Below, in pieces: positions 30,001 to 36,000 of a stretch of DNA of 41,722 nt; position 1 is the first letter of the stretch; each line of letters begins with the position of its first letter. Location: positions 1 to 41,722 of the forward strand of contig JBDONT010000037.1 of NCBI GenBank assembly GCA_039831155.1, in the 5' to 3' direction. Position numbers: made by a program. The stretch comes from Nautiliaceae bacterium. Its GTDB lineage: Bacteria; Campylobacterota; Campylobacteria; Campylobacterales; Nautiliaceae.

Positions 30001-33000
30001 AGTTGAAACTCTTATGGCCAGAGGAGTTTTAAGATACGACTGTCCTTATTTAATGGGAATGGTAGGGATGCACGGAAGTTATGCCGCTAATATGGCTATG
30101 AATGATGCAGACCTTATTATTTCACTTGGGGCTAGATTTGATGATAGGGTAACCGGAAAAATTGATGAGTTTGCAAAAAATGCGGATATCGTTCATATAG
30201 ATATCGACCCTTCTCAAATCGGAAAAGTAGTGCCTACTAAATATCCGATAGTGGGTGATGTGAAAATGGTGCTTGAAGATATGATACCACTTCTTTTAGA
30301 GGGGATTGATTCAAGCAGATATGAAGATTGGAGAGGTATTTTAAATAGATATAAAGAGCTTTATCCTTTGTCTTATAAAGATAGTGGTGAGGTAATAAAA
30401 CCTCAATGGGTTATTCAAAAAACCGGAGAAATAGCTCCGGAAGACGCAATTATTTCAACGGATGTGGGGCAACATCAGATGTGGACGGCACAGTTTTATC
30501 CGTTTACTTACCCTAGACAGCTTTTAACAAGCGGTGGACTCGGGACTATGGGATTTGGATTTCCGGCAGCCCTTGGAGCTAAAGAAAGTAAAAAAGATAA
30601 AGTGGTTATAAACTTTACAGGTGATGGCAGTATTATGATGAATATTCAAGAGGTGTTGACAGGATACAGATATAAACTTCCGGTAATTAATATCATTTTA
30701 AATAATAATTATTTAGGGATGGTAAGACAGTGGCAAACTATGTTTTATAATGATAGACTCTCTGAAACGGACCTTAGTGACGTACAGCCGGATTTTGTAA
30801 AACTGGCTGAGAGTATGGGAGGAGTTGGATATAGAGTAAAAACAAAAGATGAGTTTGAAAAAGCTTTAAAAGAGGCTATCGATTCTAAAAAAGTTGCATT
30901 TATAGACGTACAGATAGATAGACGCGAGGATGTGCTTCCTATGGTACCACCAAATTCCCCACTTAAAAATATGCTTATATTTAAGGATGAAAAATGAAAA
31001 GAATAATTTCCGTAATTTTAGAAAACGAACACGGAGCACTTGCTAGGGTCGTAAATATGTTTGCGGCAAGAGGTTATAATATAACTTCTTTAACCGTCTC
31101 TCCTATCCCAAACAGTGAATTTAGCAGAATGACTATAATGAGTGAGGGAGACCCTAAAATATTTGAACAAATCGTAAAACAGCTTTATAAACTAATACCG
31201 GTATATAAAGTAATTGAAAGTGACGATTTTATTGAAAAAGAGATGGCTATGGTTAAATTTCCTTTAAAAGAGGTAAAAGACAACCTTGCCGATATTGATG
31301 CTCTTGCTAGGTGTTATAATGGAAAAATAAGTAACGTAAATGATAAAAGTGTAGTGGTAAGTGTAGTGGATAGACCGAATAGAATTGATAACTTTTTAAA
31401 AGCGATGCAGGTAAAATATAAAAATCTTGAAGTGGTAAGAAGTGGGGTGAGTGTTATTGAAAGGTAGTTATGATAAAACTTTAAGAGAAATTTTTTCGGA
31501 TGTACCGGTAAATTTAATAAAGTTTCTTACAAATCAAGAGATAAAACGTCCTCTTAACCCTTCTTTTCCTTCCATAAAAGAGAGAATAGCCGATTTTTTG
31601 GTTGAGCTTGAAAACGGAGATATTTTTCATTTGGAGATACAGTCCGTTAATGATAAAACAATGCCACGAAGAATGCTTTTTTATGCTCTTTTAATAGAAG
31701 AGAAATATAAAAAATTTCCTATTCAAGTTGTTTTATATGTGGGTAATGAAAAATTAAGAATGCAAAACTTTTATAAAAGAAAAAATTTGGATTATAAATA
31801 TGAGCTTTTCAATATAAAGAATTTGGACTGCAACTATTTAATAAAAAGCCAGAGTATAGAGGATAATTTAATTGCAATTTTATGTAAAATTGACGATGAG
31901 GTGAATTTGCTTAACAGAATTACTTCTCGTCTGTTATCTTTGCCGGATAAAAAAAGGGTTGACTATTTAAAAAAACTTTTTATTCTTGCAAGATTAAGGC
32001 CAAAAGTGTATAATAAATTAGAAGAGTTTTATAAGGAGCAAAAAATGCCTATAGTATTAGACCCTAAGATTGACCCTTTGTATAAGAAGGGTTGGAATGA
32101 AGCTTGGAGTGAGGCTGAAAAAAAAACAAAAATAAAAGATGCTTTGTTGATTATAGAAAAATTTAATATTCCTATTGAAAAAGTGGCAAAAGAGCTTGGG
32201 TTAAAAGAAGATGAAATTAAAAAGGCGTTAAATGAAAATAAGTGAAATTTGTAAAATTTTAGAACTTAACTGCGATTTTGAAAAAGATAAAGAGATAAAA
32301 GGGATTAATACTTTACAAGATGCAAATGAGAATGAAATAAGTTTTCTTGAAAATCCTAAATATGTTAAATATCTGAAAAATACAAAAGCTGCTGCAGTAC
32401 TTATAAGAGAAGAGGACGCAGCTAAGTTACCCGAAGGTGTTATTGCTTTAAAGACGGATGAACCTTATTTAAAACTGGCTTATTTAACTAAATATTTCGC
32501 AAAAGAGCCTTGGGTTGAGGGAGGATATCAGATAGCTAAAAGTGCTAAAGTCGACAGTAGCGTAAGGATAGGAAAAGGTGCGAAGATAGGAAATAACGTA
32601 ACGATTATGCCAAACGTTGTAGTAGGTCCGGATGTGGAGATAGCGGAGGGGAGTGTTATTTATCCTAATGTGACTCTTTATAGGGATACGAAAATAGGGA
32701 AAAACGTAAAAATTCACGCCGGTAGCGTAATAGGAAGTGATGGTTTTGGATATGCTCATACAAAAGAAGGTGCTCACGTAAAAATTTATCATTTAGGGCG
32801 TGTGGTAATTGAAGACGATGTCGAAATAGGAGCGAATACTACAATAGACAGAGGAGTTTTTGGAGAGACCAGAGTAAAAAGAGGTACCATTGTTGACAAT
32901 TTGGTTCAAATAGGACATAACTGTGAGATAGGAGAATATTCAATTTTGGTTTCTCAAGTTGGATTATCCGGTAGTTCTAAACTTGGAAGAAACGTTATTA

Positions 33001-36000
33001 TGGGTGGTCAAAGTGCAACGGCCGGGCATTTGGAGATTGCTCCTTTTACTACTATTGCCGCAAGGGGAGGTGTTACTAAATCTATAAAAGAACCCGGTGT
33101 TTATTCCGGTTTTCCTCTAATGCCTCATAAAGCTTGGTTAAAATTACAGGGAGTTTTACAAAGGCTTCTTAAAAAATAGTTTTTCTCTCTCTTTTTGATA
33201 TAATTGTGTAAAAAAAGAGGAATAGATGAGAGTTGTTTTTTTATTGATTTTAGGGCTTTTTTTAAGCGCGTATGAAGAAGTTTCGATTTTAAACGTTAAT
33301 GCCAATAAAGTTGTTCTTTCAAAAAGCGTTCAAAAGGGTGTTAGTGGTTATGTTATTTGTAAAGACAATAATTTAAGTATTATTTGTGCAAGGGCTGTAG
33401 GGGATTTAAAAAAAGCGACTCTTTATCCTTATGAAGATTTAAAAAACAGTGCTTTTGCTTTGCCGGTCGTATTACCTAAAAAGCACGATAAGATAATTTT
33501 TAAAAAAGATTATGAGAGAGTTTTGATTATAGCTCCTAATCAAGACGAGTATTTAAAAGTTAAATCTTTTTATAAAAATGCTACTTTTATCTCTCCCGAT
33601 ATTTTTGCCGCTTATATTGATGATATTCCTACAAAAGAAGATTTTATAAACTTTGCCAAAATTTTTAATATAGGAAGGATGGTTTTTGTATTAGATAGGG
33701 TATATGAGGTTGATTCTTTTAGTTTTTATGCAGTTAAAGTTTACGGAAAATTTAAAGCAGCTTATAAAAAAGCTTTCTTTACAACTTATCCTAAATTCGA
33801 TATAAAAGGAAAAAATTTTATAAATTATTATAAAAACTTAATAAAGGGTGCAAAATGATGGAAAAACATATTAAAGCTTTGGAAGAGATAGTAGGAAAAG
33901 AGGATGTAAAAGTTGATAAAGCCCATTTAAGGGCGTATTCTTATGATGCTACAAAAGAGCATTATTATCCGGATGCCGTGGTGTTTCCGGAAAATGAAGA
34001 AGAGGTAAGTAGAATCTTAAAATACTGCAATGAAGAGAAAATAGCTATTATTCCAAGGGGTGCCGGGAGTGGATTTACCGGGGGTGCTTTGCCGGTAAAC
34101 GGAGGAATTGTTTTGGCACTGGAAAAATATATGAATAAAATACTTGAAATTGACGAAAAAGATATGGTTGCCGTGGTTCAACCGGGCGTTATAAATGCCG
34201 AACTTCAAAAAGCAGTTGAAGAGAGAGGGCTTTTTTATCCACCGGATCCGGCTAGTATGGATTATTCCACTATCGGTGGAAACGTAAGTGAAAACGCAGG
34301 TGGTATGAGAGCTGCAAAGTACGGTCTTACGAAAGATTATGTAATGAGCTTAAAAGCCGTACTGCCAAACGGGGAAATAATTAGAGCCGGAAAAAGAACT
34401 ATTAAAGATGTGGCCGGATATAACGTAGCCGGAATTTTAATAGCTAGTGAAGGTACTTTAGCCGTTATAACCGAAATTACTTTAAAGCTTTTACCAAAAC
34501 CTAAACTGAAAAAAACTTATATGGGAATTTTTGAAAACGTAGAACAGGCAATGAACGCCGTTTATAAATCTTTGGCACGTGGGGCTATGCCGGTTGCTAT
34601 GGAGTTTATGGATAGTCTGGTTGTAAAAGCGTTAAGAGAAAAATTAAACGTAAATTTACCGGAGTGGGCAGGGGCTTTGCTTGTAGGAGATGTTGACGGA
34701 AATGTAGAAGAGGAGATTAATTATCAGTTATCGATTCTTGAAGAGTCGTTTAAAGAAGAAGGAGCGAAAGAGTTTAGGGTTGCAAAAAATGAAGAAGAAT
34801 CAAAAGAGATTTGGTATGCAAGAAGAAATGCTTCTCCGGCTATTACTATTTACGGTACTAAAAAGTTAAACGAAGATATTTCAGTACCTAGAAGTAAACT
34901 TCCGGTAGCTTTAAACGGAATTTATGAAATAGGTAAAAAATATGGAGTTTTGATTCCTTGTTTCGGACACGCAGGGGATGGTAATATTCACGTAAACGTA
35001 ATGGTAAACGGAAGCGATGAAGAGGAACTAAAAAGAGGTTATAAAGCTGTTGAAGAAATATTTGAGTATGTTGTTTCTTTGGGTGGTACTTTAAGTGGAG
35101 AACACGGAATAGGGCTTAGTAAAGCACCTTTTATGAAGATAGCCTTTAGTGATGCGGAGCTTGAGCTTTTTAGAAGAATAAAACACGCATTTGACCCTAA
35201 CGGAATTATGAATCCCGGGAAAATGGGACTTTGATGAGAATTTGTACTTTTAATGTAAATTCCATTAGAAGCAGATTAGAAATAGTTCAAAATTTAATTA
35301 AAGAGTTTGATATTGATATTTTATGTATGCAGGAGATAAAAGTACAAAACGAGAAATTTCCTAGAATAGATGAAGAGTTTGAGTGTATTGTAAACGGACA
35401 AAAACGTTTAAACGGAGTTGCTATTTGTTCTAGATTTCCGATTGACGATTATGAAACGGAATTTGAGGGGGAAAGAGAAGAGGCCAGATTTGTTTATTCA
35501 TTGATTAATGGTTTGCATATTGTCAATGTCTATGTGCCTTTAGGGGATAATTATTCTCAAAAGTTTGAATTTAAGATGTTTTTTTACGAAAAACTGTTTG
35601 AATTTTTAAAAAGATTTAATTTAGAAAAAGAAAATGTAATTTTATGTGGTGATATGAACGTGGCTTTTAGTGACCTTGATGTATGGGATGCTGATGTTTG
35701 GGAGGGGGAAGTTACGTTTTTGCCGGAAGAAAAAGCTATGATTAATAGACTTTTGAATATGGGATTTGTTGATATTTTAAGAGAGTTTTATCCTAAAGAG
35801 AGGATTTTTACTTTTTATGACTATAAAGGGGCTAAAGTATATAAAAACGAAGGTTTAAGACTCGATTATTTTTTCTTATCAAAGCCTCTTTTAAAAAGGG
35901 TAGAGTCTTTGGAGGTTTTGACATCTTTGAGGAGAAAAAGAAAGCCTACTCCCTCTGACCACGTTCCTTTGATTTTAGAGCTTAAGGATTGAAATGTTAA

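Follow-up and report, generated by a model that had tools for sequence, protein, structure and literature searches.

How does a bacterium with intact iron–sulfur (Fe-S) enzymes assemble their clusters once nifS and nifU have been deleted? The question is raised by the lpxD locus of a Nautiliaceae genome (G000), which lies in a stretch of 41,722 nucleotides (the window). Relatives with nifSU are called keepers here, and those with a closed lpxD/PGBA_N junction loss genomes.

Deletion of nifS-nifU at the lpxD locus

The gene directly 3' of lpxD is nifS in 11 relatives. All nine keeper stretches examined have the order lpxD-nifS-nifU-(variable signalling genes)-516-amino acid flavoprotein-PGBA_N-glcD, consistent with the initial annotation, which had placed nifS-nifU behind lpxD in relatives. 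The deviations are one small ORF before nifS in G021, a truncated nifU in G019, and an extra large ORF in G024. The junction in G000 stands in place of ~5.8 kb of the keeper G023, which contains nifS, nifU, a 639-amino acid signalling-type ORF, and the 516-amino acid flavoprotein (SdhA/NadB-like). Coordinates and domain matches of the two flanking genes were re-derived, and these genes are indeed 46 bp apart in the middle of the contig (Table 1). The PGBA_N gene has 61% identity to its G023 orthologue. The sequence TTTGATATAATT is unchanged in G000, in the assemblies L194 and L195, and in the keepers G023, G024, and G003. We infer that TGATATAAT, upstream of the PGBA_N gene, is an extended -10-like signal retained after the deletion; a consensus promoter scanner made no call at this signal.

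Table 1. Features of the deletion locus (window positions).
Feature	Position	Strand	Evidence or remark
Two genes 5' of lpxD (presumably acetolactate synthase ilvI-ilvH), conserved synteny marker	29300..31467	+	Neighbourhood comparison with relatives
lpxD, 315 aa, left deletion flank	32232..33179	+	TIGR01853, 387 bits
46-bp junction between lpxD and PGBA_N gene	33180..33225	.	Mid-contig
Upstream signals of PGBA_N gene: TGATATAAT (extended -10-like) and AGAGGA (ribosome-binding-site-like)	33196..33221	+	
PGBA_N-domain gene, 210 aa, right deletion flank	33226..33858	+	PF15436, E 7.6e-27
glcD-like FAD oxidase, conserved synteny marker	33855..35234	+	TIGR00387, 553 bits, slightly below cut-off

Search for known Fe-S assembly systems

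No class I cysteine desulfurase (NifS/MisS) was found in G000 with PF00266 or a six-frame HMM search. The HMM, built on 136 desulfurase homologues, reached at most 26 bits in G000, as compared with 477 bits for G023 NifS. PF00266 gave five weak places, the number reported initially; the best of these, a class V aminotransferase (C28:5186-6286), was rejected as a hidden desulfurase, as it contains zero cysteines. A NifU HMM matched nothing in G000 beyond two Nfu genes, leaving no U-type scaffold, and an A-type carrier was found in none of five genomes tested, the keeper G023 among them. The ISC components IscS, IscU, and A-type carrier were not found in G000. Profile searches likewise found neither the SufB/SufD scaffold nor SufS of SUF, and no SUFBD-domain match that could represent SmsB of SMS. 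The 361-amino acid SUFBD proteins of three relatives had no tblastn match in G000 at E<=1e-3, and the ATPases adjoining them gave generic ABC matches only (<=69 bits). The claim that G000 shows no cysteine desulfurase, U-type scaffold, SufB/D, or SMS stands.

Among the 30 family genomes, NifU_N occurs in 13 and SUFBD in three, all three also nifSU keepers; both counts reproduce earlier ones. The earlier count of 14 genomes with nifS was close and is corrected to 15. NifU_N is present in all 154 genomes of other families of the phylum. In the MAG-rich family f7, it occurs in 66 of 71 genomes, and NifU in 55 of 57 near-complete ones. Like the loss genomes, the remaining two, the 99%-complete f7 genomes G236 and G244, have no NifU and no desulfurase-strength PF00266 match; unlike the loss genomes, they have SufB and SufD.

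Recurrence of the closed junction in the family

The junction is closed in eight of the 26 family genomes having lpxD, and NifS, NifU_N, and SUFBD occur in none of these eight, which extends the earlier observation of other family genomes with a closed gap. In a FastTree family tree (10 genes, uneven coverage; G006 was left out, having none of the genes in its compared loci), closed-junction genomes are spread over at least five separate clades, and the loss genome G014 is the sister of the keeper G013 with support 1.0. G027 and the assemblies L194 and L195 have the same junction, and a contig in DNA runs X3 and X4 joins 8527 to 14357 (G023 coordinates). The labels of DNA runs that contain the window read hydrothermal vent or epibiont metagenome. 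Fisher tests gave p values of 0.0007 and 0.003, but overstate the significance because kin are not independent. The nifS-nifU pair has been deleted cleanly in G000, and four or more further clades of this vent family have lost it separately; none of them has a known replacement system. Given these clades, the independent assemblies and runs, and the control families, recurrent clean loss without Suf, Isc, or SMS is on firmer ground than when first claimed. That the loss is real appears very probable.

Fe-S enzymes and sulfur pathways

The Fe-S enzymes of G000 are intact despite the deletion, with 198 of 199 client motif cysteines kept in 34 orthologues. IspG and IspH, normally essential [4Fe-4S] enzymes, are kept here without a known scaffold and occur in all five loss genomes tested. 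A motif scan, in which some matches arise by chance, gave 17 Fer4-type and 17 radical-SAM-type motif ORFs in G000 versus 18 and 18 in the complete G023. MnmA of G000 (C41:80044-81066), whose G023 orthologue is MnmA, has CAMC, a CxxC at the DxxC position, and is hence C-type; enzymes of this type are active with sulfide in vitro (PMC7025502). ThiS/MoaD and ThiF/MoeB are retained, and a PhsA/Psr-type molybdoenzyme is present.

Carriers

Nfu occurs in all 30 family genomes. Both Nfu genes of G000 have an intact CxxC (CVGC in C28:12477-12800, CAAC in C43:17973-18242). ApbC/Mrp was found in 27 of the 30, including six of the eight loss genomes; these six comprise five full-length copies with intact Walker A and FxCxxC (G027, G005, G010, G014, and G015) and one cut by a contig end. 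Searches of G000 and G012 found none. In G000, mrp very probably falls within the gap that follows contig C41, because sequence matching the far end of C41 lies immediately upstream of mrp in G025 and G026. On the strength of this adjacency and the 27 genomes, co-loss of Mrp with nifSU was rejected, and the initial annotation's "no Mrp carrier" is not confirmed as a loss. Its "scaffold-free" assembly goes too far, because ApbC/Mrp and Nfu, which are able to hold clusters, are kept in loss genomes. Adaptive ApbC changes were also rejected, with no alignment column separating loss genomes from keepers. ApbC of H. pylori is essential, crosslinks to Nfu, and has been discussed as a possible stand-alone scaffold, and its reconstitution was unsuccessful (PMC8144621).

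NifS of the keepers

All 13 full-length NifS proteins of the family have Ile at position Cys+26 (Ile351). Among the 120 nearest NifS homologues, this position is Ile in 105, Met in 15, and Arg in none, while Arg occupies it in 145 of 150 diverse homologues. The position corresponds to Arg354 of IscS and H. pylori NifS, which binds the substrate carboxylate (PMC9978102, PMC8918507). The inactive desulfurase paralog IscS of A. fulgidus similarly has a hydrophobic residue here, Leu instead of Ile, and keeps the catalytic-loop Cys (PDB 4eb5/4r5f; PMC8918507); sulfide has been proposed as the sulfur source there, as is suggested here for Nautiliaceae. Unlike the keepers' NifS, it has also lost the PLP lysine, and the comparison concerns the gene of relatives, not G000. 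Keeper NifS retains PLP Lys203, His101, and catalytic Cys325, the lysine being present in all 14 family copies long enough to include it and in each of the 120 homologues. Because these residues are retained and near-full-length copies are 81–95% identical between genomes, the sequences indicate that family NifS is under selection for something.

Keeper NifS scores 455 bits against a TIGR03403 cut-off of 587.7. With the arginine lost, family NifS had probably ceased to mobilise sulfur from cysteine, which would have made the nifSU pair dispensable. A loop arginine (SSERL) could compensate for the missing one, and the E. coli R354K variant is still active. Nautiliaceae, keepers included, may already use sulfide. 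Literature searches, which did not reach the 2022 phylogenomic survey defining MIS and SMS (it may list such genomes), turned up no paper on this nifSU loss or on an Arg-less NifS.

Possible routes of cluster assembly

It is likely that these are Fe-S-rich bacteria without ISC, SUF, NIF, MIS, SMS, or a cysteine desulfurase, that a single family arrived at this state on five or more occasions via a cysteine-blind NifS, and that vent sulfide is built into clusters on carriers, an unrecognised scaffold, or no scaffold at all. The route by which the loss lineages build clusters is probably an undescribed one that uses sulfide from the environment. We tentatively favour assembly from sulfide on ApbC plus Nfu, at somewhat short of even chances. 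Anaerobic sulfur-respiring cells would hold ample sulfide and ferrous iron, and HS- and Fe2+ would form clusters on remnants of the epsilonproteobacterial NIF pathway, namely the P-loop ATPase ApbC/Mrp (FxCxxC) and the two Nfu proteins (CxxC). These would hand clusters to clients, perhaps via the YfhL/FdxA ferredoxin. Other sulfur-fed pathways (C-type MnmA, ThiS/MoaD with ThiF/MoeB) would draw on sulfide too, and loss of the cysteine-anchoring arginine from family NifS before the nifSU deletion would have been a pre-adaptation. E. coli can use sulfide in place of IscS, and SMS is fed by sulfide (bioRxiv 2024.03.20.586028; PMC13015791). However, M. jannaschii apbC alone does not rescue E. coli without ISC and SUF, not even under anaerobic conditions with Na2S added (bioRxiv 2024.03.20.586028), which counts against assembly on ApbC plus Nfu, as does ApbC not being found in G000 and G012. 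Such E. coli with an empty vector has negligible FDH-H activity, with no help from 5 mM Na2S (bioRxiv 2024.03.20.586028), and H2S does not rescue iscU or hscBA mutants (PMC13015791).

This failure of known carriers and sulfide in E. coli would be explained if an unrecognised scaffold or sulfur donor common to the family did the work after a real loss, as would the repeated loss of nifSU, which suggests a bypass that existed beforehand and was shared. We consider this fairly unlikely. In a comparison covering 548,652 bases (~1/3) of G017, no gene was found to be gained in loss genomes only: of 413 G000 genes matched there, seven are absent or weak in G023. G000-only ORFs resemble, by inspection, mostly CRISPR, restriction, and surface genes. 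The donor could be a ferredoxin:thioredoxin-reductase-like gene pair, one rhodanese-fused (C37:12602-13667), reducing persulfide/polysulfide to sulfide at the assembly site. The fusion is whole in seven of eight closed-junction genomes, and in G015 a match covers 192 of its 242 residues. The keepers G023, G016, and G020 have it split or reduced, and searches of the keepers G019 and G022 did not find it; therefore, no genome was seen to have lost nifSU and the fusion together. The pattern is nevertheless weak, with ~3 events versus 5, and the fusion is whole in 11 keepers as well. Two further replacement candidates were rejected: an SQR-like gene, one of the seven, occurs in 19 of 30 genomes, keepers too, and a 407-amino acid G023 protein without an NCBIfam match, presumably a cysteine desulfidase, is confined to three keepers. 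A scaffold might instead be needless, with apo-proteins loaded directly from Fe2+ and HS- or imported aqueous FeS, and ApbC/Nfu serving trafficking or repair only. The vent habitat of the runs, the NifB/NifX-family proteins present, and the proposal that methanogens assimilate FeS(aq) (PMC8516115) are consistent with this, but the iscU/hscBA (PMC13015791) and empty-vector (bioRxiv 2024.03.20.586028) results speak against it and a 2026 review calls biosynthesis not spontaneous (PMC13066941), making direct loading unlikely.

Less likely still is an artefact, in which a plasmid or other element dropped by metagenome bins has taken up nifS-nifU (or suf/sms). The loss genomes are all drafts, which leaves room for a relocated, unbinned copy; as noted initially, all six family genomes in 1–8 contigs have nifSU. 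G000 also lacks a 29-kb rpoB-tuf block, confirming the earlier remark, and probably mrp. Contigs with nifS-like sequence occur in four of four runs compared, but these are mixed communities, and such contigs of other organisms cover the G023 locus in all four, so the comparison is blind to relocation. Against relocation, move and bin loss would be needed in at least five clades, comparable gaps are absent from other families, and no keeper has a clearly moved copy (nifS is on the lpxD contig in 13 of 15, two being cut by contig ends). With the empirical miss rate of 0.13, the probability of missing a chromosomal copy five times independently is ~4e-5, a figure that does not bind a plasmid. A NifU match at E<=1e-40 occurs in one of 72,556 plasmid records, and that one is cyanobacterial.

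Relation to known systems

A dedicated scaffold is held necessary for Fe-S assembly, and the minimal sulfide-using SMS has one too (PMC13066941; bioRxiv 2024.03.20.586028). If the present reading is true, there is a sixth assembly route, or ApbC/Nfu can act as scaffolds, or vents offer a living example of near-spontaneous assembly; the last would matter for models of early life. Each of these options can be tested with closely related sister pairs of keeper and loser and with the Arg-less NifS found in cultured genera. The loss genomes resemble M. jannaschii and relatives with SMS (SmsCB) in having no cysteine desulfurase, sulfide as the inferred sulfur source, and an anaerobic sulfide-rich niche (PMC12192291; bioRxiv 2024.03.20.586028), but SmsB/SufB/SufD occurs in no loss genome and SUFBD in three keepers only. 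Compared with the NIF/MIS system of H. pylori (NifS, NifU, Nfu, ApbC, and FdxA; PMC8144621), NifS and NifU, both essential there, are deleted in G000, and the keepers' NifS differs in its missing substrate arginine and sub-cut-off TIGR03403 score. Shared with H. pylori are Nfu (CxxC), a YfhL/FdxA-like ferredoxin, ApbC (in relatives), and the same kinds of client.

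Deletion of nifS-nifU and probable loss of known assembly systems

In the genome under study (G000), lpxD and the PGBA_N gene are separated by 46 bp; the closer of the two ends of contig C34 is ~8 kb away. The counterpart in the complete same-genus reference (G023) spans ~5.8 kb and contains nifS, nifU, a 639-aa ORF, and a 516-aa SdhA/NadB-like flavoprotein gene, in agreement with the clean deletion behind lpxD proposed in the initial annotation. Because the conserved signals that precede the PGBA_N gene are still in place, the cut spans from just past the lpxD stop to just ahead of the promoter-like element. 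The locus is a hotspot of gain and loss. An ORF of 264 amino acids, inserted between ilvH and lpxD and presumably similar to Rpn-type proteins, has no NCBIfam match and is fragmented in G027. The flavoprotein is gone along with nifSU in G000, G027, G005, and G010 and is retained in the g4 loss genomes. A further deletion variant, a join in DNA run X4 of positions 10819 and 14359 of the G023 locus (L014), leaves nifU in place but lacks the genes between it and PGBA_N.

Searches of G000 for NifU_N, SUFBD, and A-type carriers gave no matches. PF00266 matched five weak places, the best being a protein without any cysteine. A profile from 136 desulfurase homologues, run against 38,193 six-frame pieces, peaked at 26 bits, as compared with 477 bits for NifS in G023; the G023 orthologue of the 26-bit gene is O-acetylhomoserine sulfhydrylase. 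The earlier claims that no cysteine desulfurase, U-type scaffold, or SufB/D is found in G000, and that it keeps two Nfu-domain proteins (both with CxxC), thus stand, and what is found in G000 fits none of NIF/MIS, ISC, SUF, and SMS. Of the two Nfu genes, the second shares 94% identity with its orthologue in G023 and lies in a gene run with a CysK-like enzyme, beside Fe-S genes that we take to be lutABC-like.

The claimed absence of Mrp does not hold as a loss. ApbC/Mrp, a P-loop ATPase carrier, is present in 27 of 30 family genomes, and mrp follows thiC in G023. In G000, 569 bp separate thiC from the end of C41. DNA matching this end is found directly upstream of mrp in G025 and G026, such that mrp most likely falls in an assembly gap behind C41. 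A 29-kb rpoB-tuf block is also missing; the C41 end and the C33/C37 break are the probable gaps containing mrp and this block.

Features of the nifS-nifU locus and related genes
Feature	Location	Description
lpxD	window 32232-33179	left flank of junction
PGBA_N gene	window 33226-33858	right flank of junction
264-aa ORF	window 31451-32245	between ilvH and lpxD
516-aa flavoprotein	L014:12799-14349	in G023
Second Nfu gene run	G000 C43:15742-20569
FTR-like gene and FTR-rhodanese fusion	G000 C37:12602-13667
Arg-less NifS	L014:8597-9769 (G023 nifS)	and 12 other family NifS; also P0105-P0120; Ile, or Met in related group
SufB and SufD, G236	G236:C4:104169-106785	99%-complete f7 genome, no NifU, no desulfurase-strength match
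SufB and SufD, G244	G244:C46:75384-78001	99%-complete f7 genome, no NifU, no desulfurase-strength match
G019 NifU	L021:9914-11407
G000, G027		closed locus, 46 bp
G005, G010		closed locus, 4-bp overlap
G017, G014, G012		closed locus; 23, 98, and 193 bp to flavoprotein, respectively
G015		closed locus; two chemoreceptor-like genes, no room

Recurrence of the probable loss

The loss very probably recurs in other Nautiliaceae, as had been proposed. Among 26 family genomes with lpxD, 15 keep nifS, eight have a closed locus, and three have another gene order and no match. NifS, NifU_N, and SUFBD are absent from all eight closed-locus genomes, and a PF00266 re-test of five of these peaked at no more than 65 bits. 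Since the eight form five clades interleaved with keepers of nifS-nifU (10-gene FastTree) and the NifS+NifU tree broadly agrees with the core tree, we take the pair to have been inherited and then lost repeatedly. A junction of the G000 type also occurs in metagenome contigs L194 (96.6% to G000) and L195 (99.9% to G027, and perhaps the same data), and contigs of DNA runs X3 and X4, from two studies, carry this join at depths of 6 and 46. NifU of G019 matches over ~230 of 321 residues, reflecting decay or misassembly; this genome also has a SUFBD gene.

Outside the family, NifU_N was found in all 154 sampled genomes of the phylum, which are mostly 99–100% complete and likely isolates, and in 66 of 71 genomes of a MAG-rich control family (f7). 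For genomes at least 90% complete, the proportions are 55/57 in f7 vs 9/15 in Nautiliaceae. Both f7 exceptions, G236 and G244, lack a desulfurase but have SufB and SufD, an apparent desulfurase-free SufBD system; the search therefore detects replacements when they are present. Two facts speak against the loss: every genome assembled into 1–8 contigs (six in all) retains nifSU, and none of the loss genomes is closed. We nevertheless consider the loss very probably both real and recurrent. No report of it was found in the literature searched, supplements being outside its scope.

Persistence of Fe-S clients

Genomes without any system were reportedly found mainly in taxa poor in Fe-S proteins in a 2022 survey. 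Fe-S motif counts in G000 match those of G023. The 34 motif-bearing orthologues average 83% identity to G023 (the 1,227 others, 80%), and 198 of their 199 motif cysteines are conserved; four G023 motif proteins have no G000 orthologue, one of them falling in a contig gap. IspG and IspH were found in all five loss genomes tested, and NadA, BioB, MoaA, SelD, and a PhsA/Psr-type enzyme in G000 by orthology. These sequences indicate that demand for Fe-S clusters persists in G000. ThiS/MoaD (two copies) and ThiF-family genes are retained in four loss genomes, G000 among them, and G000 MnmA is C-type as defined in PMC7025502.

Possible routes of assembly

The best reading, held tentatively, is that clusters would be assembled on ApbC and Nfu with sulfide as feed. 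By its sulfur source this route would most resemble SMS; by its components it would resemble the downstream half of the pathway in H. pylori. PMC8144621 describes H. pylori ApbC as essential, with many client contacts and crosslinks to Nfu, and PMC13015791, PMC12192291, and bioRxiv 2024.03.20.586028 describe sulfide replacing the desulfurase in E. coli and SMS. Against an ApbC route, sulfide feeding in E. coli required IscU (PMC13015791), and an ISC/SUF-null strain was not rescued by archaeal ApbC plus sulfide (bioRxiv 2024.03.20.586028).

Because of these two results, we entertain other explanations. Assembly by an unrecognised family protein is unlikely; the FTR-rhodanese pair offers a weak lead. 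No gained gene turned up in a partial gene comparison. Loss genomes carry the fusion complete or almost complete, whereas it is split, reduced, or not found in five keepers. Loading of clusters without a scaffold, to which the proposed assimilation of FeS(aq) by methanogens (PMC8516115) lends some support, seems a still more doubtful route; PMC13066941 holds that cluster biosynthesis does not happen spontaneously. As mrp probably lies in a gap, the G000 bin can miss genuine genes, and an unbinned nifSU copy would make the absence artefactual; we judge this improbable, slightly more so than scaffold-free loading.

NifS of the keepers

His101, Lys203, and Cys325 are retained in all 13 full-length family NifS proteins, yet residue 351, which a gap-free alignment places 26 positions past Cys325, is Ile. 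The equivalent residue is Arg in H. thermophila NifS, H. pylori NifS, and human NFS1, and according to PMC8918507 and PMC9978102 it binds the cysteine carboxylate. The 120 nearest homologues have Ile (105) or Met (15) here, and none has Arg. NifS homologues that bear Lebetimonas and Caminibacter labels help to place the family taxonomically. Arg occurs in 145 of 150 diverse cluster representatives; of the five exceptions, one represents the family NifS clade and the remaining four are without the PLP lysine as well. A. fulgidus IscS, which is inactive, has Leu at this position. The conserved Thr, and the Ala preceding the cysteine, are also altered in family NifS. It is thus probable that cysteine is not the sulfur source of the family NifS, which may supply a ligand to NifU or hold persulfide for it, the Arg-less clade being a likely cysteine-blind or re-purposed desulfurase. 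However, the gene is well conserved, and the R354K mutant of the E. coli desulfurase is still active. The cluster of the Met-type group includes an Arcobacteraceae-labelled member.
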